Source: a virus
Lineage: Duplodnaviria; Caudoviricetes
Length of the DNA stretch: 64,000 nucleotides
Virus record (IMG/VR): IMGVR_UViG_3300037067_016777
Coordinates: 160,001 to 224,000 of that record
Direction: 5' to 3' (one strand)
Shown: in pieces, positions 41,476 through 55,535 of the stretch
Layout of the letters: each line of letters opens with the position of its first letter
Position numbering within the stretch: position 1 is the first letter of the stretch
The notes under the pieces: model-generated
Told to the model about the DNA's origin: nothing
Seen by the model: the letters and a program-made list of their open reading frames with translations, nothing else
The model's database searches: none
Position numbers and translations under genes: made by a program

Positions 41476-42030
41476 ATGGATCTACGTGACTTATCTAAAT
41501 CGATGGTGTTATTCGAGAATCGCCATAAAATTATTGACTCTCTTGATAGTATATTGCAGCAGATTGGTGTTCCGGCCGATCTGATAGGAGGAGTAGCGTT
41601 AGGCTCGTATAATTATACTAGGAACACTGAAGATATCGACATACTAATTGATAGATCTGATTACGATAAAGTAGCGAATGTAATAATCAATAACGGTGGT
41701 AGTAGTTTGGGTAAGAATAATAAGTTCTATTTATCTGGCTATACTGTCCAAATCTGTTATAGTGGTCTTAAGGTTCGGCATACTACATTCAAGAAACCAT
41801 CTAACGCTGAACCTGGGTTGAAGGTAATAGGCTTACCACAATTGCTATTGATGAAGATTGAAGCCGGCATTAGTCAATTCAGACATCGTGCAGATTTTAT
41901 AGAGCTAGTTAAGAGGAATAACATTTCATTGCAATATTTAGAGGATCATGTTTTTGGCTCATTAGATAAGATGGCAAGAGCCCAAGCAATTGAATTATGG
42001 AAAAGGGCACAAAGCGAACTTGATGAATGA
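41476..42030 (+). CDS. Nucleotidyltransferase (AbiEii/MenT/DUF6036-like, Pol-beta fold)
   Basis: LIGGVAL..Y...RNTEDIDIL, LLLMKI, RHRADFIEL. Confidence 0.8.
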   Translation: MDLRDLSKSMVLFENRHKIIDSLDSILQQIGVPADLIGGVALGSYNYTRNTEDIDILIDRSDYDKVANVIINNGGSSLGKNNKFYLSGYTVQICYSGLKVRHTTFKKPSNAEPGLKVIGLPQLLLMKIEAGISQFRHRADFIELVKRNNISLQYLEDHVFGSLDKMARAQAIELWKRAQSELDE

Positions 42031-42033
42031 TAT

Positions 42034-42105
42034 GCGGTCTTAGTGTAGTGGTAACACATCAAGCTACCAGCTTGATAACGGGAGTTCGATCCTCGCCAGG
42101 CCGCT
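42034..42105 (+). tRNA. tRNA-Gly(ACC), no encoded CCA, bulged T-stem
   Basis: Acceptor GCGGTCT/AGGCCGC; D-stem GTGT/ACAC; anticodon stem TCAAG/CTTGA with loop CT-ACC-AG; GTTCGATC T-loop; discriminator T. Confidence 0.8.
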
Positions 42106-43710
42106 TTAATTAATCTGTTTTATAAACCTAATAACTGGCATACCGTTTATTTTAATTAAACCAGCCGATTCGGCATATTCTTTTTCTGACATTCTTATTC
42201 GTTTCGCCTGATCCCACACAGTTTTCTTGTGATATCTGTGGCCATTGGCGTCGATATACCAATAGCTCGGTTTTGTTCGACCATCAAGAATCCATCCTGC
42301 AGCCTTGTATATAACTCCACTATGATTTGCTCCAACGTCTGCAAAAGAAATAAGACATTTGATGTTGTTTGGAATTAGATTGACAGAATGGGCTAAAAAC
42401 CAAGATGCGAAATTCTTCTTGTGGTAGCTTGGATGTATGCAAAATCTATCCAATTCTAATATTGATGTTGTTGGCAATTTTAATCGGTCCGCCGATTGCT
42501 TTCTTGTTACCGAATTGAAGCTAGTGCAGGCTATTAGCAAGTCGCCAACAAACGCACCTATTTTTAGTCCGCCTCTACTTTTTGATAGATAATGGTACTG
42601 ATTTAGGAAGGTGTTTGACTCTTCGGATTGTATTAGTCTGATTTCGACATTGTTAAAGTCAAAAATTTCTTGTTTTGGCTCGATGCTAAGAATCTTAGAT
42701 ATACGATCGCGAATGCAATTAATACCATAAAACTCATATTCATATATATAATGTAATTCATATTCTTTAGACAAATGTCTTTCCCAATAAGTGTGTTTTT
42801 GCTTATCTCGCAACTGTCTTTCTGGTCTCGAATGCCAGTAACTTCCTTGACACTCAATAAGTATTCTGCGGCCATTATATTCAAAGCCAATATCAAAAGT
42901 CCAAGGACCAAGTGCAATCTGTGTAGCATTGATATTATAGACATCCTTCAATATTGAAATAATAATTGTTTCTAATATTGAAGTTTTCGGTTGCTTTAAC
43001 TTGGCTATCGCCTGCTTTGACTGATACGAAGAGTTAGACCAAAGTTTTTTAGATGACTCAGATATTTTTTGGCGATATTCTTCATTTTCCCAAATCTTTT
43101 TCGATCGCTCTGATTGTTGAAAAGCGACGACTGGATCTTTAAACGCTAGTTTTATTGCATTAGATGTTTTTATGCGATATTGGCGATCTGCCCATAGCGC
43201 TTTAGTTCGTACTATATTGGCATTTTTAACTTCTGGCTTATTTAGTGCTTTCTTGACTGCAGCGGTATGTCGTTTCTTTATTTCTTCGTCCGTTCTACAT
43301 CTAGACAATGTTTCAACTGCTTTATTATGATCGTTTTCCCTTAACATCCTTTTCTTTTGAGACATAGACTGTTTTTTGCGATATTCTTCAGATTGCATAA
43401 TATAATTGCATTTTTCTCTGAAGAGTTTATTGCTATGTAGCTGTTGTGATGCGATTTGCATATTTTTAATAACTGACGGCTTTTTGCAAGACTTCTGAAT
43501 AGCAGCAGTTGTGCGCTGCCTGAACTCACTGTTCTGCCATTTTAATTTACACCCCTCAGATGGTGTTCTTGTCTGTATATTGAATTTTTTAAGCCATTTG
43601 CCTATACACCTGTTGCCGACACTGCATATTTCGGCTATCTCATTAATACTGAACATTTTTTGTTCGTAGTGTTCAGACAGCCAACCACGGTCCTGGTATA
43701 ATTTAGCCAT
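42106..43710 (-). CDS. Endonuclease (HTH + NUMOD-like repeats + Vsr/DUF559-like domain) fused to a Mom-like GNAT domain
   Basis: FDIG...LIECQGSYWH...RDKQK; YHYL, LELDRFC, ISFAD...HSGVIYKAAGW. Confidence 0.75.
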   Translation of the reverse strand: MAKLYQDRGWLSEHYEQKMFSINEIAEICSVGNRCIGKWLKKFNIQTRTPSEGCKLKWQNSEFRQRTTAAIQKSCKKPSVIKNMQIASQQLHSNKLFREKCNYIMQSEEYRKKQSMSQKKRMLRENDHNKAVETLSRCRTDEEIKKRHTAAVKKALNKPEVKNANIVRTKALWADRQYRIKTSNAIKLAFKDPVVAFQQSERSKKIWENEEYRQKISESSKKLWSNSSYQSKQAIAKLKQPKTSILETIIISILKDVYNINATQIALGPWTFDIGFEYNGRRILIECQGSYWHSRPERQLRDKQKHTYWERHLSKEYELHYIYEYEFYGINCIRDRISKILSIEPKQEIFDFNNVEIRLIQSEESNTFLNQYHYLSKSRGGLKIGAFVGDLLIACTSFNSVTRKQSADRLKLPTTSILELDRFCIHPSYHKKNFASWFLAHSVNLIPNNIKCLISFADVGANHSGVIYKAAGWILDGRTKPSYWYIDANGHRYHKKTVWDQAKRIRMSEKEYAESAGLIKINGMPVIRFIKQIN

Positions 43711-43847
43711 ACAAATATATTTGGGTGTTTGGTGCTATAATGAATTGTTTAGTTTATTTACCTTTTGAGCTAAAAGCGGACGTAATGAAAAGATATGCAT
43801 CGCTGTGTTTGTGTGTTCGATGAAACGGTAAAAGAGGATTTGATGTT

Positions 43848-44555
43848 ATGGCTATTATCGGACCGAACGATTTGCCGGTGGTTTTGAAGCTGAACTCAGA
43901 TCCAATGAAGGCTTACTGTTTAGCTCAACTCGGCCACCCGGCAGTTGCCGTTGAAATCGAGGAAGCCCAATTTGAGATAGCATTGCGCGTTACGTGCGAT
44001 TTTATAGCCGGATATTTCCCAAGAGAACAAAAACTAAAACTATTTTATACTGAACCGTTGGTTGCAACATACCCAATGCCAGACGATGCTTATTGGATCC
44101 AAGAGGTCCAGTGGGATCCTGTCACGACTAGGATAGATGATGTGTTTGGAGCTGAGAGTTTCCTCTTTTGTGTTGCTGACAATCTTAAGATTCTTGATAA
44201 AGACAATAGATTGCAGCCTGTTTCAGATTGGAAGACGCATTGGAAAGCTAAAACTCCATTTGGTCGCCGAACGCTAAAGATTGTTAAGAGGAAGATCGAT
44301 AGAACAATGCCGAAAAGGCGATTATTCTATGGTAATGGAATGATAGAAGCTACAACTAGTCATGTGGTTAAAATTGGCGGTAAGTGGCGTGAATTCGGTG
44401 AAGTAAATATTGGCGACCGTGTGCACGGGGTCAAAGATATGTTTGGGATACAGAATGTCGAGTGTTTTGAATCAACAGATGCGATCTCAATCAGAGCAAA
44501 TGGTGCTGGATGCTATTTTGGTTGCACCGAAGGCGAGCCGATCGTTATACACTAG
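43848..44555 (+). CDS. Neck protein (gp13-like) N-half fused to a Hint/intein-like domain
   Basis: Residues 1-107 include YCLAQLGHPAVAVEIEEAQFE. From Cys108 (44169): CVADNLKI, IEATTSH, WREFGEVNIGDRV, CYF, IVIH-stop. Confidence 0.8.
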   Translation: MAIIGPNDLPVVLKLNSDPMKAYCLAQLGHPAVAVEIEEAQFEIALRVTCDFIAGYFPREQKLKLFYTEPLVATYPMPDDAYWIQEVQWDPVTTRIDDVFGAESFLFCVADNLKILDKDNRLQPVSDWKTHWKAKTPFGRRTLKIVKRKIDRTMPKRRLFYGNGMIEATTSHVVKIGGKWREFGEVNIGDRVHGVKDMFGIQNVECFESTDAISIRANGAGCYFGCTEGEPIVIH

Positions 44556-45573
44556 ACATAAAGATTCCGCTGAGTTTGATCCAGTTAAATTCACTCCTAA
44601 AACAATCCATAATAAGAAATCAATAGACATCGATCGTCTTATAGATTTCTTCAAATCCGACCACACTCTTGGCGATTGTGCTATAGAGTTTAGATGCAGT
44701 ACTGCTACTATCAAGCGAAGATTAAGGGTTGCTGGTGTAGACACCTCGATCTATAACCATAGTCAGATCGCTGTCGACCGTTCTAAAAAAGTTCGTGCTG
44801 TCGTTCTGCCGCCAGACGAAGAGATTCGCCATATGCTGGTCGACCTAAATTTAGATACCAAAACTGTCGCCGAAGAGTTTGGTGTCCACTTCAATACCAT
44901 AAGGAACATATCTAGGCGACTTGGTATAGAGAAGAATAGGAAAGATGTGGCAAAATCGATGAGTGTTAGACACTTAAAGATGCATGGTTATAGACATCCA
45001 GCACAACGTCCGGACGTTTTAGCCAAAACGAGGAGATCCAGTGGTAGAGTAAAGTATAGCGATATTAACGGCCGCACTTTTTTGTTCCGTTCACTGCATG
45101 AGCTTGGATATGCGTTGCTGCTAGATAAACGTGGTGCGGAATGGCAATATGAAGAGATGCATGTGCGTTATATCGATATGTTGACGGGAAAGCAGCGGAT
45201 TTACGTTATCGATTTTACTGTGGAATCTAATGGGCTGGTTGAGTGGATTGAGGTAAAACCGAACAACAAGATGATACCGGACGACAAAAGAATATATGCC
45301 AGTAGGAGAGCAGAAGATGCTGGTGTCGTTTATCGCGGATTAGTCGAGGAAGAGAGGCTAGAACTATGGGAGCTGTTGAAATCTGGTTACCGTCAAGAAT
45401 TTATACAATTTATGTTCCTCGCACCTAATCGCAACGCAAAACAGATAAGTTATTGGTTTAGTAGTAGTAAAGATGCTACTGAATTCAAGCTTGATGGATG
45501 GCGTAGACATAATATGCGCGATTATGGAACAGCACTACACACAGTGGTTTTCAGGCGTATTGAACAATTATGA
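44500..45573 (+). CDS. HTH-containing TnsA-like PD-(D/E)XK (homing-type) endonuclease
   Basis: Two HTHs, HPAQRPDV, FRSLHE, WQYE, YVIDF, IEVKP. Start uncertain. Confidence 0.75.
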   Translation: MVLDAILVAPKASRSLYTRHKDSAEFDPVKFTPKTIHNKKSIDIDRLIDFFKSDHTLGDCAIEFRCSTATIKRRLRVAGVDTSIYNHSQIAVDRSKKVRAVVLPPDEEIRHMLVDLNLDTKTVAEEFGVHFNTIRNISRRLGIEKNRKDVAKSMSVRHLKMHGYRHPAQRPDVLAKTRRSSGRVKYSDINGRTFLFRSLHELGYALLLDKRGAEWQYEEMHVRYIDMLTGKQRIYVIDFTVESNGLVEWIEVKPNNKMIPDDKRIYASRRAEDAGVVYRGLVEEERLELWELLKSGYRQEFIQFMFLAPNRNAKQISYWFSSSKDATEFKLDGWRRHNMRDYGTALHTVVFRRIEQL

Positions 45574-46586
45574 TTGACAGAACACTTAAACAGTTTTTTA
45601 CACATGATTACGATTTACTTCTACCAATTCTGGTCTCTTATCCGATAAGAGAGCGGCTAGTTATTGATCCATTTGCTGGTGAGCAACATTTATTGCGGTT
45701 AGTAGATTGCGATAAGATTGCAGTTGATGTTGATGCATCTGTAAATCCAGACATTGTAGCTGACTCATTTAACGAGTTGCCAAAGTTTGAATCGTGTGCG
45801 GTTATAACAAACCCGCCATACGCTCATTGGCACATTTTGCAGCGCGAAAATCAGAGACTAGCGGAAGCTGTGATGCTCGCCGGATATGTTGATTTATATG
45901 AATATAGTATTAGGCGGGTGATCGATCAGTTAGGATTTTGCCCGATCTATGCAATCTTGCCAGAGAATTTTATTGCGTCTAGGACTACCAGACTAAGGCG
46001 TGAGTTGTATAAGCATATCAAAGTAGTTCAGATTCATACACGCTCGTTATGTGACGATACAGAACAGCCTACTGTTTTTGTAGTATTGACGCCGGAGGAG
46101 ATTGATGACACCGATTTGTGGATAGATGATAAATTTACAGCCAAGATTTTAATAACGGCAGACGGATTACAGCCGCGATTAGAGGCAATCGGTGACTATG
46201 TTGACTTTGGTATGAAACCTTGGCAAACAGAGGAACAACGCAATACTTCTATATTACTTAAGGCAACTGATGGTGGTTCTGAGAACAACCGTATTAGGCT
46301 GATGACAGTAGCGGAACAATTTCCGGGTCTACGTCATTTCCATAACAAAATTAGCGATAGAGCCTATATTCAAATAGTACCAAAGATAGAATTATCTGAT
46401 AGCCAAATTGAATTACTAAAAATGGCTTTTAATAGGTGGGTAGATAAGTGGAGGAGCGATACTTTTGGACTCGGCCTGACTTCATTTAGGAATAACTCTA
46501 ATGGATTCAGAAGGAAGAGACTAGATTTCAAATTGGCAAGATTAGTGCTAAATAACTTGATCGATAAGCTTCTGCCTCATCGCTGA
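45570..46586 (+). CDS. Amino (N6-adenine) DNA methyltransferase
   Basis: QFFT, IDPFAGE (motif I), ITNPPY (motif IV). Confidence 0.85.
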   Translation: MIDRTLKQFFTHDYDLLLPILVSYPIRERLVIDPFAGEQHLLRLVDCDKIAVDVDASVNPDIVADSFNELPKFESCAVITNPPYAHWHILQRENQRLAEAVMLAGYVDLYEYSIRRVIDQLGFCPIYAILPENFIASRTTRLRRELYKHIKVVQIHTRSLCDDTEQPTVFVVLTPEEIDDTDLWIDDKFTAKILITADGLQPRLEAIGDYVDFGMKPWQTEEQRNTSILLKATDGGSENNRIRLMTVAEQFPGLRHFHNKISDRAYIQIVPKIELSDSQIELLKMAFNRWVDKWRSDTFGLGLTSFRNNSNGFRRKRLDFKLARLVLNNLIDKLLPHR

Positions 46587-47303
46587 CTCGCTTAATTCAG
46601 CCAACCGCGAGACATAGGCGTTCTGACACTGGTTAGCAGCATCAATCTTTGCTTGATCGACCTCGATACCATCACAAATAAATATGAATTTATCGTTAGG
46701 TTGTGCTTGAGCACACTGTTGCATACTTGTTTTTCTATCGCCCTGGGAACCGCCGTCTGAATCGCCATAGCGAAGATATAACCAAATTCGTTTATTTCCG
46801 AATATAATCACACCATCAGGTTTGGTTGGCAGTCCGCTGTCTTTTGGCTCTCCGATTTTTAGTTGACAGAATGGCGGCGACATTTTCGAGAACACGTTCC
46901 TGACAGCACCTTTTTGGTCGCTCGATTTTTTGTTGCCATTTGTAGATCGTTGGCTGTTATAGACTACAGTTACAACATGATGTCTGATTTGATCATAGGA
47001 TAAATTCAGAGATTCAAACTCCTTGATGATTTCGTCGTCAGAGATCGAATATCCATCTTTGCGTGCTTTTTGACAACTTGTTCCGTTCGAGCCCAGAGCC
47101 ACGAGCATAATATCTATAGCTTGTATCTGCGCTCTCGGGTCTGTTCTGTACTTCCCAAAGTACAGCATTGATGCAATAGTGTTAATCATTTTGGTGTCAT
47201 AAATTATTCTATATCTGTACCCCGGAGGGAAACCGATCGAAGTTAGGTCGATTGCAACCGCGCTAGCTGCTAATGCTGTAGCCTTACGTGCTTTCTGTGC
47301 CAT
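46548..47303 (-). CDS. Putative restriction endonuclease
   Basis: KPDG...YLRY.DSDGGSQ...FIFICDG; convergent with the MTase. Confidence 0.55.
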   Translation of the reverse strand: MAQKARKATALAASAVAIDLTSIGFPPGYRYRIIYDTKMINTIASMLYFGKYRTDPRAQIQAIDIMLVALGSNGTSCQKARKDGYSISDDEIIKEFESLNLSYDQIRHHVVTVVYNSQRSTNGNKKSSDQKGAVRNVFSKMSPPFCQLKIGEPKDSGLPTKPDGVIIFGNKRIWLYLRYGDSDGGSQGDRKTSMQQCAQAQPNDKFIFICDGIEVDQAKIDAANQCQNAYVSRLAELSESAMRQKLIDQVI

Positions 47304-47330
47304 GAGATTAAAGATAGAATGGAGGTTGTT

Positions 47331-48023
47331 ATGAGACTAATAATTGTACCGTTTGTAAGCGTGTCGGCCTTCTCTGATATAAATACTGGCGATCTATTCC
47401 TATCAGAGAAGGCTTATGAAGAGAAACAGGAATCTCTTATAAGGCATGAGCTAGCACATTTATATTCGAATGACCCCGACCACGGCAAAATGTGGTCCGA
47501 GTTAGCAGAGCAACCACTACCAACGGTCGACTTGTTTAAGAAGATGCGAAAGCGGCTTGGCATTCCACAACATATTGCTGCGAATATAGGCAATATTTCA
47601 GGCGTTCAAAACATACTCACAGATTATTATCTTTTACAAGCTTATCGCCGTTCTTCACAACAAATTCTTGGGACTATCGGACACTGGGAAGTTTTAAATG
47701 AAGGTGGTAGTGGCCCAACAAACCAGCTGATTCGATTATATCCAACACCAAAGGGCGCATTTCCGGTTGTGGTTGTTTATTATCCAACAATTACACATTT
47801 CAGAAGTCCCCAAGCGCGTATGCTGGCTTCCGAAATGCTGTTGGCTGAAACGAAAGTGATGGTCGGTGCTGCACGTAGAAAAATCGCTGGTATACCTATG
47901 CCAGACGGTGGTAGCCTAGCACTAGACGGCGAGGCATTAGTCGCAGAAGGAAAAGAAGAGAAAGCTGCCATCATAGAAAAGGCTATACATTTGGGAGAGC
48001 CTATGGGTTTTGTGAAAGCATGA
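47331..48023 (+). CDS. HExxH metallopeptidase-like domain fused to the neck protein C-half
   Basis: GGAGG RBS; LIRHELAH...DHGKMW; then IRLYPTP, GAARRKIAGIPMPDGGSLALDGEALVAEGKEE (gp13-like C-terminus). Confidence 0.8.
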   Translation: MRLIIVPFVSVSAFSDINTGDLFLSEKAYEEKQESLIRHELAHLYSNDPDHGKMWSELAEQPLPTVDLFKKMRKRLGIPQHIAANIGNISGVQNILTDYYLLQAYRRSSQQILGTIGHWEVLNEGGSGPTNQLIRLYPTPKGAFPVVVVYYPTITHFRSPQARMLASEMLLAETKVMVGAARRKIAGIPMPDGGSLALDGEALVAEGKEEKAAIIEKAIHLGEPMGFVKA

Positions 48024-48029
48024 TTAAAA

Positions 48030-48251
48030 ATGCAGTTTATTACTCGTCATCTCGATTATGTTAATATAATCTCATCTTATAAGTCAGGAGTTGCGATATC
48101 TGACTTAGCTGAGCGGCATAGTGTTGGAATCCACATTATTTATAAGGTGCTAGAGAACTGCTGCGAACGTCCTCAAGTTGACGACTTGTCTGCTGTTTCG
48201 GTTCCACAAGACCGGCCTATCCGCAAAGGTAAATGGAATAGAACGAGTTAA
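48030..48251 (+). CDS. Small HTH protein
   Basis: YKSGVAISDLAERHSVGIHIIYKVL. Confidence 0.6.
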   Translation: MQFITRHLDYVNIISSYKSGVAISDLAERHSVGIHIIYKVLENCCERPQVDDLSAVSVPQDRPIRKGKWNRTS

Positions 48252-48316
48252 GGATAGATTTCTTGTTCCTCTAAACGTCGACATATCAAAGATATCGTAG
48301 AAAGTTGAGGTATCAA

Positions 48317-48508
48317 ATGAGTCCATTAAATAAAGTGTGTTTTACGGTTTGTATGGTTTCGATTGTCATTAGTGCATTACTAGGTTTAGCTATGATATGG
48401 ACCGATATTGATCCAGAAATAACATCAAAGACATTTCTGACTTTACTTATCTTTTTTGTAAGCTCAGCGGCAATTAGCGGCGTCAATGCATTTTTCAAGA
48501 GCAAGTAA
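48317..48508 (+). CDS. Small two-TM membrane protein
   Basis: GAGGT RBS; two hydrophobic helices. Confidence 0.65.
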   Translation: MSPLNKVCFTVCMVSIVISALLGLAMIWTDIDPEITSKTFLTLLIFFVSSAAISGVNAFFKSK

Positions 48509-48510
48509 TA

Positions 48511-48783
48511 ATGCATTTATCTCTTTTAAATGAGTCGGGTCCGCAATTCGATATTCTCGAAAAGGGTAAGATAAATCTCACGGACGATGAGCGCGAGCGA
48601 GTTATGATCGCTAAGGCTGTTTGGCATTTTGGTTCTAACGGTAAGCCGAGTCCAGCCATTAAGAAAGCGATAGTGCGTGGTAAGACTTATTACTATTGCA
48701 ATACGCACCGTTGTTATCAATCTGCGAAGACTTTAGATGGTGCTATAAAGAAATTCTTTGATGTAGTGGAGCCTTCAAGTTAA
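48511..48783 (+). CDS. Hypothetical protein
   Basis: Starts MHLSLLNE. Confidence 0.65.
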   Translation: MHLSLLNESGPQFDILEKGKINLTDDERERVMIAKAVWHFGSNGKPSPAIKKAIVRGKTYYYCNTHRCYQSAKTLDGAIKKFFDVVEPSS

Positions 48784-48792
48784 ATCTACACT

Positions 48793-49638
48793 ATGCGACT
48801 TCATTTGTTATCAGAAGGAATTGTGGCATCGGAACTTGGTGATGTCACTAAATTAAAGAATTCATTAGCTAATCAATTAATGATTGCTCTTGAGCGGTTA
48901 GGTTTTCGTAAACCTAATATGAAACCAGCTGAGAATCCGACTGATGATGCGATTGTCTATATAGAGGCTGGACAAAACGCACTGACTAGGGAATCTCAAA
49001 CGATAGTGGTTACGATAGAAGACGATGATAGTGTAAGAATACAAATCCCAAGCGATATTAGTAGATCTGGTAAGAAGAATCTGGCTGAAATTTTGGGAAT
49101 AGATGATTTCTTTATTACCGGGTCAGTCGGAGAAGCTATTGCCAGGTTAAAGGCTATTAAGCGTAAAGCGGATCATCTAATACAAAAAAGCGGTTTGCGT
49201 GGCTCGTTATCTTCAGGCCATATAGGAGAAAGTGAAGAACCACCAGCTGTCGACTATACGGTCGGCGAATTTCAGGTAAATTCAACTAAAAACGGTAGAT
49301 TCTTATCAAGCCAGCTAGAACGTTTTTTAAATGCTAAAATGCCGAATTTGATAGTTTTAAGGCAATCTGTATGGGAGCCTAGGGCGCAAACTGGTTGGCT
49401 ATCTTGCGCAACTGTAATATATATGTGTCGTGGCACAACAAGTTTAAAACAACAGCTTAAGGAATTATTTGCTCAAGAGGACTATTTTGATTTTATACCG
49501 ACGCGCTATAAGACGATCGGCATAGCGTCTACTGTAGAAGAATTTCTTGGTTTATATGGTCACTATGAATTAAGCCCTACATGGACAAATATTATTAATA
49601 ATATGGCTGATAAGTTTGAGGCAGGAATGGTTGATTGA
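48793..49638 (+). CDS. Hypothetical protein
   Basis: Starts MRLHLLSE. Confidence 0.7.
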   Translation: MRLHLLSEGIVASELGDVTKLKNSLANQLMIALERLGFRKPNMKPAENPTDDAIVYIEAGQNALTRESQTIVVTIEDDDSVRIQIPSDISRSGKKNLAEILGIDDFFITGSVGEAIARLKAIKRKADHLIQKSGLRGSLSSGHIGESEEPPAVDYTVGEFQVNSTKNGRFLSSQLERFLNAKMPNLIVLRQSVWEPRAQTGWLSCATVIYMCRGTTSLKQQLKELFAQEDYFDFIPTRYKTIGIASTVEEFLGLYGHYELSPTWTNIINNMADKFEAGMVD

Positions 49639-51193: not shown

Positions 51194-52066
51194 ATGGCTA
51201 TCCATGAATTTACGCCACACGTTTTAGAGCGAGAGAGAACCTCTAATCCTGTTCCTGGCCCAGAACGCAATCCGCATATTGAGCTATATCCAGTGGGTGT
51301 AGCGCAGAGCAGCGATGTTCAAGGTGGCCGCTCTAGCATTTATGGCGAGACACTCGGCAGCCAGCCAGAGTTTATTCAAGAGTTCCTGATGCCGGGTTTT
51401 CACGCTCTTGACGAAGCGATGAAAACATATTGGTCTGGAATTAGAATACCAACTAAAGATGCCTACAGGTTTATGAGGGTTAAGATAGCTGGTGGCGATA
51501 AGAGTATTCTGATATGGCGTGATCAATTAAAAGAAGGACGAGTAAAATTTCCTGTTGCCTCTATTAGTCGGATCAGCCATGAATTCAATCCACAGAAGTT
51601 TAGTACGCCTGTGTTAGCGATGGCTCGCAGATATACTAGCAGTCGCATGGATCGAGTTGCTTTAATAAGGCGGCCAGTGCCTTTTTTGGTGAAATATACG
51701 CTCACAATATGGGCGTCTTATAAAGGTGAAGCCGATCACGCATTAGAACAGATTCTGCCACGATTCAATCCGTTAGCTGAATTCGTAATGTGTGATCAAC
51801 ACTTACGCGGTAGTGTACAGCTAAGATTTGAAGGGTCTGCCGACGCCAGCGAAAAGGAAGTTGGTTTTGATCAGAAAGCCAAAATACGATACGAATTTTC
51901 AATGACTGCTGAGGCTTGGCTGCCATTGCCAGAACTTATAGTTCCAACTATTCTTGGACACGCCACTGTGATTAAGGAATCTGCCACGAATGAATTATTA
52001 TCAATGGGACGAGGAGATACAACTAGACTGTTTTGTAAGCCTGACGTTGGTGGTTGGGATATTTGA
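51194..52066 (+). CDS. Tail terminator/sheath stabiliser (gp15-like)
   Basis: FPVASISR, PVPFLVKYTLTIW, EQILPRFNP. Confidence 0.75.
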   Translation: MAIHEFTPHVLERERTSNPVPGPERNPHIELYPVGVAQSSDVQGGRSSIYGETLGSQPEFIQEFLMPGFHALDEAMKTYWSGIRIPTKDAYRFMRVKIAGGDKSILIWRDQLKEGRVKFPVASISRISHEFNPQKFSTPVLAMARRYTSSRMDRVALIRRPVPFLVKYTLTIWASYKGEADHALEQILPRFNPLAEFVMCDQHLRGSVQLRFEGSADASEKEVGFDQKAKIRYEFSMTAEAWLPLPELIVPTILGHATVIKESATNELLSMGRGDTTRLFCKPDVGGWDI

Positions 52067-52676: not shown

Positions 52677-55535
52677 ATGCCGACCTACCTTTCGCCGGGA
52701 GTTTATCCTAGGGAAATAGACCTTAGTGCAGTTACTGGCCAAACTGGGCCGCTTCGTGCGGCATTTGTTGGAACTGCCAAAAAAGGTCCTCTGAATACTC
52801 CAGTCTTTGTAAGTGGTGCTCAACAGGCTATCGACACATTCGGAGAGCCGTTTGTCGATAGTTATCTGATGTATGCAGTCCTCGCCTATTTGGAGGAAAG
52901 CAATCAAGCATATGTCATTCGGGTTGGTATTGAATGCCAAGATGGACAGCCTGTAGAATTAGGCGATGTTTGTATTGATACTTCTGGATCTCGGGTGAAC
53001 GGATGGGGTCGGATTCCAGTATTCACTGGTATCGATTACGGCAAATTACTTATGCGAGCTGTGTCGACAGCTTCGCCCGTTGTCTTTCATGATGCTGCTG
53101 TCGAGAACATAACGTTTACTGATGTTAGTGTGTCAGTTACTGATGGGCCAACCAGCGCAACATTGCAATTCACCGGCGAAACCGATCTAAGCGATAGCTA
53201 TACTGGTTGCACTGACGACACTTTTTCATTATTCATTACTGGCGCTTCAGACGATGGATACATGATAAAGGGAGCAACATTCCAGCTATTCCGCAGCCGC
53301 GATAATGCATTGATGGTTAGTGGTACTTTGGACGAGAAGGTAACGGGGGCTACGAGCACCAGTACTAATATTGTAATCGGTGACGGTCTTGAATGCAACA
53401 TTCTTGTTACTGATGGCCGCCTTGACACCAATGACGTATTCTCGTTCACAGCAAAACCGTACAACAGAGAGCTAGAAGTAGAGGTTGAGGGTGTTGGTGG
53501 CACTTATATTATGCCAGTTGCTACCTATACTTCAGCAGACACTCTAGTTGCCGCAATCAATCTGCTAATTGCAACTGAGGATTATGTTGCTGTTGCAGAT
53601 ACTGTTGCTAGTGTTGAATATCCAGAATTGCGTACGAAGGTTGCTGGGGATCGTATTCAGTTGATAGGATCATGTGCTTTTGCTTCTGAGGTTGGAGTGC
53701 AGCAATATGCTTATGACATTCCACGTAGTTATTTGTATGGCTCTGATGCTGAACCATTTTTCATCAACAGCCAAAGTAATCGTGTAGCAATCGACATAAT
53801 CCCAGCAGATAGAAGCGACACTATCAGTGTCGCTTTTACTATTCCTGTCGGAACGAATTTGTCAGCTACAACCATAGCAGCGGCCATTAATGGCAATGGG
53901 ACTTATGCTGGCGAGACATACTTTACATCATTTGCTATCACCGCTCCTGGCGATATTCCGCATGTTGTTGTTGTAACTTCAGATGGACATAGGCTTGATC
54001 AGCTCTATTTGAAGGCTAATTACTCCAACCTTAAGACATTGATGTTTGCCGAGGAAATCGGTGTACTTTCTCCTTACACGAAAGCATACCGTGGGTTTTC
54101 TGACAGTCGCGTGTCGCTGCCTGATACTGGTGAAATCACGCCATCTGTGCCGTTATCTTGCGAATTAGCTCCGAGCGGACCAGATTGTGCGCTCGACACA
54201 GCTTATTTCGCCAATATTGTCGGATGGTTTGTCGCATCGAGCGCTGGGACGTGGTTGGACGATTACACTCTGACGCTCTCACTGCAGACTCAAATTGCAG
54301 GCAATGCGGCTGCACGTTATCAGTTAACTATGACTGATCCAGACGGTGCTACTGCCGAGAGCATTCAAAATCTCAGTTTCGATAAGACTGACGATCGATA
54401 TATCGGTAATGTTTTGAATCCTGGCTCCGCTTACGGTGGAGTTAGTGGTAATGAGTTTATCAATTGGGAAGATCGGCCATCATTCTTAAATAATGATGAA
54501 CTTGATCCAAGTACCTACGAAGTTAGGCAGCCTGCACAGTTGTCGAAGCAGATGTTTGTTGGTGGTACTAATGGCATACCGGTAGATCCAGCATATTCGA
54601 GCGAATTGGATGCTGCGATTATTGGTAATGCACAAGATTCAAGCGGCATGTATGGTGTGCAGAACTCTGAGACTTATGACATTAATTTGCTGGTAGTTCC
54701 AGGGATGACATCTGGTGCGGTCATTGGCCAAGGATTGCAACTGTGTGAAAGTCGTGGCGATACCTTGTTTGTCGTCGATCCGCCGTTCGGTCTTCGCCCA
54801 CAGCAGGTTGTCGATTGGCATAATGGGATGTTGTTATCTGATCTTTCAGCTGCAATCAATAGCAGTTATGGTGCATTGTATTGGAGCTGGGTGAAGATTT
54901 ATGACCAGTTCAGCAAGCAATACATTTGGGTTCCACCATCTGGTCAGGTTGCTGGAGTTTTTGCTCGTACTTCCAATGTGGCAGAGCAATGGTATGCCCC
55001 TGCTGGTATCAATCGCGGAGTTTTGAATACAGCATTGGACGTTGAATACAACCCAAGCCAGGGAGAGCGTGATCTGTTGTATGGTAGTGGTAATGCTGTC
55101 AATCCATTGGTATCATTCCCGAAAGATGGTATCGTGGTTTTTGGGCAGCGAACACTGCAACGATCTACCACAGCACTAGATAGAGTAAATGTGCGGATGC
55201 TGTTAATTTACTTAAAGAAGAATCTGATTCAAACGCTCAGATCATTTGTGTTCGAGCCAAATGATGCTACTACTTGGGCGCAGGTCAGAACGCTAGTTAA
55301 TCCATTTTTGGCAGATATCCAAGCACGTCGTGGACTTGACGCTTACAACGTGGTTTGCGACGAGTCAAACAACACACCGGCGAGACGAGACCTTAACCAA
55401 TTGTGGGTATCGGTTTTCATTAAGCCGACGAGAACTATCGAATTCATCGTGCTTAATCTCGTTGTGATGCAGTCTTCAGCTTCCTTTAGTTCAGAGGAAA
55501 TCTTGGCTGCTGGTGGTGTCGTAGTAAGCGGGTGA
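52677..55535 (+). CDS. Tail sheath protein (gp18-like)
   Basis: YLSPGVYPREID, WYAPAGINRG, VFGQRTL, RVNVRMLL, FEPND, IKPTRTIEFI. Confidence 0.96.
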   Translation: MPTYLSPGVYPREIDLSAVTGQTGPLRAAFVGTAKKGPLNTPVFVSGAQQAIDTFGEPFVDSYLMYAVLAYLEESNQAYVIRVGIECQDGQPVELGDVCIDTSGSRVNGWGRIPVFTGIDYGKLLMRAVSTASPVVFHDAAVENITFTDVSVSVTDGPTSATLQFTGETDLSDSYTGCTDDTFSLFITGASDDGYMIKGATFQLFRSRDNALMVSGTLDEKVTGATSTSTNIVIGDGLECNILVTDGRLDTNDVFSFTAKPYNRELEVEVEGVGGTYIMPVATYTSADTLVAAINLLIATEDYVAVADTVASVEYPELRTKVAGDRIQLIGSCAFASEVGVQQYAYDIPRSYLYGSDAEPFFINSQSNRVAIDIIPADRSDTISVAFTIPVGTNLSATTIAAAINGNGTYAGETYFTSFAITAPGDIPHVVVVTSDGHRLDQLYLKANYSNLKTLMFAEEIGVLSPYTKAYRGFSDSRVSLPDTGEITPSVPLSCELAPSGPDCALDTAYFANIVGWFVASSAGTWLDDYTLTLSLQTQIAGNAAARYQLTMTDPDGATAESIQNLSFDKTDDRYIGNVLNPGSAYGGVSGNEFINWEDRPSFLNNDELDPSTYEVRQPAQLSKQMFVGGTNGIPVDPAYSSELDAAIIGNAQDSSGMYGVQNSETYDINLLVVPGMTSGAVIGQGLQLCESRGDTLFVVDPPFGLRPQQVVDWHNGMLLSDLSAAINSSYGALYWSWVKIYDQFSKQYIWVPPSGQVAGVFARTSNVAEQWYAPAGINRGVLNTALDVEYNPSQGERDLLYGSGNAVNPLVSFPKDGIVVFGQRTLQRSTTALDRVNVRMLLIYLKKNLIQTLRSFVFEPNDATTWAQVRTLVNPFLADIQARRGLDAYNVVCDESNNTPARRDLNQLWVSVFIKPTRTIEFIVLNLVVMQSSASFSSEEILAAGGVVVSG

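Follow-up and report, generated by a model that had tools for sequence, protein, structure and literature searches.

How can a phage make a working virion protein from a gene that has been cut in two, when neither half carries the parts needed for protein splicing? The question is raised by a stretch of viral DNA (Duplodnaviria; Caudoviricetes) of 64,000 nucleotides, here called the window, which covers bases 160001-224000 of the single 269,105-bp contig IMGVR_UViG_3300037067_016777 of a jumbo myovirus-like phage from a groundwater metagenome. Five open reading frames (ORFs) occupy positions 43848-48023 of the window: piece 1 of a gene resembling the T4 neck gene gp13, a TnsA-like ORF, a methyltransferase, a convergent ORF of 251 amino acids (aa) and piece 2 of the neck gene. 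Piece 1 (43848-44555, plus strand, 235 aa) ends in a Hint domain, and piece 2 (47319/47331-48023, plus strand) begins with a domain resembling a small zinc metalloprotease (mini-zincin). Both added domains are almost certainly self-processing modules, putatively catalytic, that would restore the carboxyl group of Phe107 (or its thioester) on one half and the amino group of Asn108 on the other. The two pieces are composed of the following parts.

43848..44168, plus strand: gp13-like N-extein, residues 1-107 ending ...GAESFLF, aligning with residues 1-107 of intact homologues.
44169..44555, plus strand: complete Hint domain of 128 aa (Cys108, T169-x-x-H172, C-terminal His235), then TAG, with no terminal Asn; assigned from AlphaFold2 (AF2), Foldseek, profiles and conservation.
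47322..47326, plus strand: GGAGG ribosome-binding site for piece 2, read from the sequence, 5 nt upstream of ATG 47331.
47331..47582, plus strand: putative mini-zincin of 84 aa, HELAH...DHGKMW, ending ...GIPQHIAA at the junction; assigned from weak SprT-like/WLM/M78 Pfam matches, minigluzincin profiles and invariant residues.
47583..48023, plus strand: gp13-like C-extein starting NIGNISG..., plus stop, aligning with residues 108-254 of intact homologues.

The interrupted gene was recognised as gp13 from a profile of 29 intact homologues, which matched the T4 gp13 chains 9mkb and 9lu4 with an E-value (E) of 5.7e-23 (residues 15-247 against 7-308 of 309), and the relatives of piece 2 carry the precomputed assignment PF26809 (Phage_T4_gp13). 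The locus lies in the neck/tail module, with a gp15-like gene at 51194-52066 and the tail sheath gene at 52677-55535 both downstream of the split gene, and the gene order is the same in relatives. As no other sequence like either gp13 half was found in the 269-kb genome, the split gene is the phage's only gp13. Piece 1 has 269 relatives at E ≤ 0.01, and about 20 of those listed are uninterrupted proteins of 253-271 aa (at ≤95% identity over residues 1-111); the N-extein of the window shares 95% identity with the homologues P0072/L009. Among the named phage records of INPHARED, piece 1 had no match and piece 2 one weak match. Aligned across the break, the intact homologues read ...DVFGAESFLF/NIGNISGVQN..., piece 1 of the window reads ...ESFLF/CVADN and piece 2 reads ...PQHIAA/NIGNISG, the slash marking the break. 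This alignment places the break exactly between Phe107 and Asn, in agreement with a preliminary description, made from the letters of the window alone, which had proposed a gp13-like gene in two pieces with the junction ...ESFLF-NIGN...; both ORFs are present as it described them. Asn occupies the +1 position of the C-extein not only in the window but also in each piece 2 examined and at the corresponding site of all intact homologues, where canonical inteins have Cys, Ser or Thr.

The same part of gp13 has also been invaded by canonical inteins in three relatives, at sites within ~30 residues of the Hint/zincin junction (P0129, GAE/C...HN/SFLF; P0101, YRKF/C...HN/SQK; P0134, NIGNI/C...GN/SGVQ), each with Ser at +1; the P0134 element is a full intein nested within a zincin-bearing piece 2. 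At L003:11672-11920 and P0125:75-95 a partial copy of the C-extein start (NIGNI / VGNIS) is found a few residues upstream of the true junction, and in L003 and L004 a Phe precedes the junction, mimicking the end of the N-extein. These copies and the Phe before the junction may be traces of recombination or co-conversion.

The extension of piece 1 was modelled by AF2 (64 homologues) with a predicted local distance difference test (pLDDT) of 91-96 over residues 108-235, and the isolated gp13 N-half was poorly defined in the same model. Foldseek searches with the Hint domain retrieved whole mini-inteins, bacterial intein-like (BIL) domains and Hedgehog Hint domains with E down to 1.5e-7, the top match being BIL2 of Tetrahymena (E 1.5e-7). 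The gp41-1 intein was matched with a TMt of 0.82 over 127 residues, and further matches were the Mtu RecA, Npu DnaB and DnaE inteins, a Clostridium BIL domain and the Hedgehog autoprocessing domain. A sequence profile of the domain matched Prp8 inteins, a BIL domain and a DnaX mini-intein; no Pfam model was significant with piece 1 of the window alone. Across 99 full-length piece-1 sequences, position 108 is Cys in 86 and Ser in 13, the block-B His (H172) is present in 99/99 and the block-B Thr in 88/99, and a stop codon comes right after the penultimate His in 98/99. In the window this end reads ...IVIH followed by TAG; among the homologues the stop codons after the terminal His vary (TAA, TAG, TGA), and the ending is the same with or without overlap by the endonuclease gene. 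The domain therefore has the fold, the N-terminal Cys/Ser and the block-B TxxH of a canonical intein and lacks the C-terminal Asn (or Gln/Asp) joined to a C-extein, so that it has an N-terminal nucleophile without Asn-dependent C-terminal cleavage, as BIL/Hedgehog-type domains do. As the fold on piece 1 is complete, nothing is left for a C-intein to complement. On the predicted proteins, canonical cis- or trans-splicing by a standard or split intein is excluded because there is no terminal Asn, no C-intein and no +1 nucleophile, and the earlier reading of a complete 128-aa Hint ending in His and stop, outside the standard split inteins, has thus held.

A class 3 intein, for which a near-invariant Cys222 was considered as the marker, was ruled out, with position 108 always Cys/Ser and Cys222 replaced by Ile/Met in some members. 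No paralogue of the Hint or of the zincin was found in the same genome, and a search among longer Hint-bearing proteins found no other host gene for the Hint, which is weak evidence as the search was word-based.

On piece 2, the GGAGG five bases before ATG 47331 makes this the probable real start rather than 47319, which gives an N-terminal domain of 84 aa; ribosome-binding site, length and HELAH...HGKMW motif are as described before. Within the domain, one Asp, one Glu and two His are invariant among 14-16 homologues that share 22-55% identity, and the HExxH and a third His ligand, a feature of minigluzincins and of SprT/WLM proteases, are conserved. Across 14 members of the family, Pfam gave SprT-like in 5 (best E 5.6e-4), Peptidase_M78 in 4 and WLM in 2 (best E 2.1e-3), all below the curated cut-offs; specifically, the window zincin scored 13.2 bits with SprT-like against a cut-off of 25.6. 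Profiles of the domain aligned with proabylysin/projannalysin over the HExxH helix and third His at E 0.02-0.07. The AF2 model of piece 2 (mean pLDDT 59) shows three strands and then helices, so that the extension is predicted as beta-beta-beta plus helices with HExxH and without the intein blocks F/G. Foldseek with this model gave abylysin/jannalysin and T4 gp13/gp14 at E 0.04-2.5, which is not significant, and a search of the ESM Atlas gave no usable match for the zincin part. The preliminary description had placed a SprT/WLM-like zincin where a C-intein would be expected, and the motif, the invariant residues and the weak profile matches all point the same way; the label also fits the hits to minigluzincins, since Wss1 and Spartan belong to that family (PMC4559962, PMC5557861). 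The end of the domain always coincides with the junction, and its last two residues are usually small (AA, AG, GA, GS or SA; occasionally AF or SF).

Two variants of the zincin were also observed. In L006, L007, L052 and L056 the domain is shortened to ~66 aa, without the N-terminal strands and with HExxH and the downstream His kept. Piece-2 relatives L016, L022-L025, P0193 and P0149 form a clade with DExxH in which the Glu and the other two His are kept.

The distribution of this architecture was surveyed over 84 related loci and the window using four hidden Markov models (N-half, Hint, zincin and C-half). Neither a Hint (0/61) nor a zincin (0/61) was present at the intact loci, and in 18/20 split loci a Hint-bearing piece 1 and a zincin-bearing piece 2 lay on the same strand 0.9-5 kb apart. 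The two split loci without pairing are one that is cut by a contig end and L002, which is L085/L086. The gap holds an endonuclease homologue in 15/20 split loci, or in 16 if a weak L003 match (E 2.3e-6) is counted, and no intact locus has such a homologue; the usual cassette is Hint, endonuclease and zincin with a gap of ~1 kb. The recurrence of the two-piece architecture in 18/20 split loci and in 98 full-length piece-1 homologues is far beyond chance.

L085/L086 represents a 262-kb relative, assembled twice independently, in which the Hint piece 1 (L085:10001-10714, L086:3180-3893) is followed directly by the next virion gene, and the 10 kb to either side hold neither an endonuclease nor a zincin or C-half. 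Its piece 2 may be encoded far away, making a truly unlinked pair, or may have been lost.

Selection on the added domains was assessed from non-synonymous (pN) and synonymous (pS) differences per site over twelve locus pairs. Synonymous sites were saturated or near so in most of the pairs (pS 0.57-1.0), and pN was 0.11-0.40 for the Hint and 0.26-0.53 for the zincin, far below pS in every pair compared; where dN/dS could be computed it was 0.1-0.5. Hint and zincin are both under purifying selection and are not decaying. Split alleles also persist and spread. On the extein tree the split state needs at least six changes, five of them forced by well-supported branches, and the extein of the window nests with 100% support in a clade of 11 intact alleles (95% identity to L009). 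Contigs with an empty site, in which position 44162 is joined to 47586 via TTATTCAAC (...FLF-N...), were found in the source and landfill samples; their flanks are ~13% diverged from the window and they therefore come from a different strain. The sole gp13 of the genome and the patchy split and intact alleles agree with the selfish multi-gene cassette in an essential single-copy gene that had been proposed.

The Phe/Asn site in an essential single-copy virion gene, together with the catalytic residues kept in both domains across diverged phages, means that some protein-level repair other than splicing must operate. Our preferred account, which we hold tentatively and put a little short of probable, is a two-enzyme protein trans-ligation that does without a nucleophilic side chain, the Hint thioester and an alpha-amine freed by the zincin giving a native peptide bond. 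A homing-type cassette sits between codons Phe107 and Asn108 of the sole gp13 gene, and two precursors would be made. In precursor 1 the Hint, using Cys108 and the block-B Thr/His, would turn the Phe107-Cys108 bond into a thioester, and in precursor 2 the zincin would cleave itself off at the Ala/Asn bond, its own C-terminal end, so that the first C-extein residue would present a free alpha-amine. Folding of the gp13 halves onto each other would bring the amine beside the thioester, and attack of the amine would form a native Phe-Asn bond and release the Hint, so that the ligated product would carry the junction-spanning peptide ...ESFLFNIGNISG.... In such a scheme the protease would stand in for Asn cyclisation and the alpha-amine for the Cys/Ser/Thr nucleophile, and the element could occupy sites closed to ordinary inteins. 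Thioester formation, self-cleavage at Ala/Asn and the ligation step are all proposals made from the architecture.

Ligation is preferred over non-covalent assembly of the halves, the latter being nearly as likely. Codon 108 is TGT, and a single change to TGA would give exactly the native N-half; if non-covalent assembly sufficed, the Hint could be dispensed with in one step and should have been lost many times, yet every one of the ~100 homologues keeps a catalytic Hint. The near-universal C-terminal His, which has no role in N-terminal cleavage, also favours ligation; in intein structures the terminal His lies beside the +1 residue, and by analogy its location here would be where the incoming amine docks. 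A further argument is that in BIL2, the best structural match, an amine is reported to attack the Hint thioester, in that case from a lysine and yielding an isopeptide bond (PMC8616854). Finally, the zymogen proabylysin has its C-terminal tail placed within the active-site cleft, in contact with the zinc (PMC5557861), a geometry that suits cleavage in cis at the end of the domain. A prediction of the complex between Hint (98-235) and zincin (1-100) scored 0.00 and gave no verdict, neither for nor against.

Several points weigh against ligation. Without catalysis an alpha-amine attacks a thioester slowly, and we know of no Hint domain that uses an alpha-amine. In a few sub-lineages the Hint ends in Lys or Ser or has a short tail, so that the terminal His is not absolutely required, and the first His of HExxH is near-invariant, being Asp in one clade. 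The zincin call is a weak one, drawn from a motif, invariant residues, weak profile matches and a fold model of low confidence. T4 gp13 and P0126 have insertions or deletions just after the junction, which points to a loop in which a nick might be tolerated, and the ligation chemistry itself is something that we infer.

The strongest alternative is that the split leaves no scar and no ligation follows, the thioester being hydrolysed or thiolysed so that the Hint comes off, and the zincin cleaving itself away, after which halves with native ends assemble non-covalently into a working gp13. We regard this as possible, if somewhat doubtful. It accounts for the same conserved catalytic residues and exact junctions, inteins without a C-extein nucleophile are known to undergo N-terminal cleavage, and the tolerant loop suggested by the junction-side indels is in its favour, as is the precedent that phage proteins split by homing endonuclease genes work as separate chains (Aeh1 NrdA, PMC3045599). 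It is on this alternative that the two observations on the Hint bear most heavily, namely its retention under purifying selection in ~100 homologues when one nonsense mutation at codon 108 would free the N-half, and the conservation of a C-terminal His that cleavage alone does not need.

It is unlikely that the added domains stay on and serve to keep the halves together, as handles for association or as chaperones, or that processing is confined to one of them. The split NrdA is indeed assembled with the help of extensions that stem from a mobile element (PMC3045599), but such a role gives no reason for the invariance of the nucleophile, of the block-B His and of the residues for zinc binding and catalysis, and a ring-forming neck protein is unlikely to tolerate tags of 128 and 84 aa in its most conserved stretch. 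That the gene is decaying and non-functional, with the neck function dispensable or supplied from elsewhere, is very improbable: L085/L086 has a piece 1 without a piece 2 within 10 kb, but the genome holds no second gp13, all four parts are under strong purifying selection and the architecture is kept across deep divergence. Least credible of all is joining of the halves at the RNA or DNA level by an intron or programmed excision, with the in-frame extensions incidental, as the cassette-skipping contigs of the same sample that could suggest it differ by ~13% in their flanks and represent the empty site of another strain, the region shows no match to any intron family, both extensions are folded, conserved and under selection, and a separate ribosome-binding site serves piece 2. 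The absence of any Rfam match in 43500-48300 speaks against a group I or group II intron. Of the circumstances that the preliminary description had named as fatal to its proposal, an intact neck gene elsewhere, decaying pieces and joining of the halves by an intron were looked for and not encountered.

The closest genetic parallel is the fractured genes, in which split inteins flank a free-standing homing endonuclease gene (Dassa et al. 2009, PMC2677866). The gene layout is common to both, and both occur mainly in environmental phages with a patchy, mobile distribution. Here, however, the Hint is undivided on piece 1 and lacks only the Asn, there are no complementary N- and C-intein fragments, piece 2 has a putative zinc protease in place of a C-intein, and the Asn at +1 makes the known trans-splicing impossible. 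The cassette also sits in a gene for a structural protein, not in one for an enzyme of DNA metabolism, and its endonuclease is of the TnsA-like type. BIL2 (Tetrahymena BUBL locus) and the Hedgehog Hint share with piece 1 a Hint with N-terminal Cys and a thioester resolved by an external nucleophile, as is proposed here, but they conjugate or release cargo and neither repair a split gene nor belong to a mobile cassette with an endonuclease. To our knowledge no partner protease exists for these domains, and an alpha-amine forming a normal peptide bond would be new for Hint domains. The minigluzincins and the SprT/WLM proteases (Wss1, Spartan) resemble the piece-2 domain in the HExxH helix, the downstream His ligand and a domain size of ~85-110 aa; in contrast, the domain here is an N-terminal pro-domain on half a virion protein and ends exactly at the extein junction, and its sequence similarity to them is below curated thresholds. 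In Aeromonas phage Aeh1 an essential gene, nrdA, is likewise split by a homing endonuclease gene (mobE) and remains functional as two polypeptides, although these are without catalytic self-processing domains and assemble non-covalently via short tails (PMC3045599). Full-text literature searches found no description of a Hint and a metalloprotease on the halves of a split gene.

Every form of protein splicing known to us needs Cys, Ser or Thr as the first C-extein residue, a need that limits the sites open to inteins and leaves a scar in engineered ligations. If the thioester is indeed resolved by aminolysis after proteolytic unmasking, the phage would be using a natural chemistry of protein ligation that is new, and traceless ligation tools with no requirement for a given residue could be modelled on it. 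Should double self-cleavage be followed by non-covalent assembly instead, it would still be a new way for a selfish element to neutralise the cost of splitting its host gene. Either route extends the fractured-gene picture of genes in pieces. The chance that the protein chemistry is of a categorically new type is substantial; the genetic element, chemistry aside, is a variation on a known kind.

Between the two pieces, the cassette of the window holds three further ORFs.

44500..45573, plus strand: putative free-standing TnsA-like homing endonuclease (PD-(D/E)xK type) with helix-turn-helix repeats; Pfam Tn7_TnsA-like_N, below cut-off.
45570..46586, plus strand: DNA methyltransferase with NPPY motif; phrog_18657, E 9.5e-16, and a weak Eco57I match.
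46548..47303, minus strand: ORF of 251 aa, convergent with the methyltransferase, a possible restriction partner; no Pfam, PHROGs or NCBIfam match.

The TnsA-like ORF is listed from 44410 but probably starts with the ATG at 44500, so that it would overlap the Hint coding region at the latter's 3' end. It matched Tn7_TnsA-like_N with E 4.9e-5 and 24.2 bits against a cut-off of 26.5, the match of its homologue in L001 being also weak, and it shares 45% identity with that gene, which has the same position. The methyltransferase and the 251-aa ORF have no homologue in the other 19 split loci and are extra cargo at this locus only; with an overlap of 39 bases, they resemble a restriction-modification pair (45570-47303).

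Directly upstream of piece 1, on the minus strand at 42106-43710, lies a 534-aa fusion of a nuclease and a Mom-like domain, the nuclease part of which weakly matches REase_MTES_1575 and falls with PHROG HNH-endonuclease families. Homologues of this fusion flank the gp13 locus or lie within it in several relatives (L003, L019, L022 and L028), which makes the surroundings of the neck gene a general hotspot of selfish nuclease genes. Further upstream are a nucleotidyltransferase-like ORF (41476-42030; weak NTP_transf_5 match) and, directly after it, a tRNA-Gly with anticodon ACC (42034-42105). Short contigs identical to parts of the window also occur in a landfill metagenome from a study separate from that of the groundwater source. 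Over 43000-49000 of the window these landfill contigs match parts of the cassette with 100% identity, the methyltransferase and the zincin among them, which indicates that the same phage with the same cargo is present in more than one habitat.

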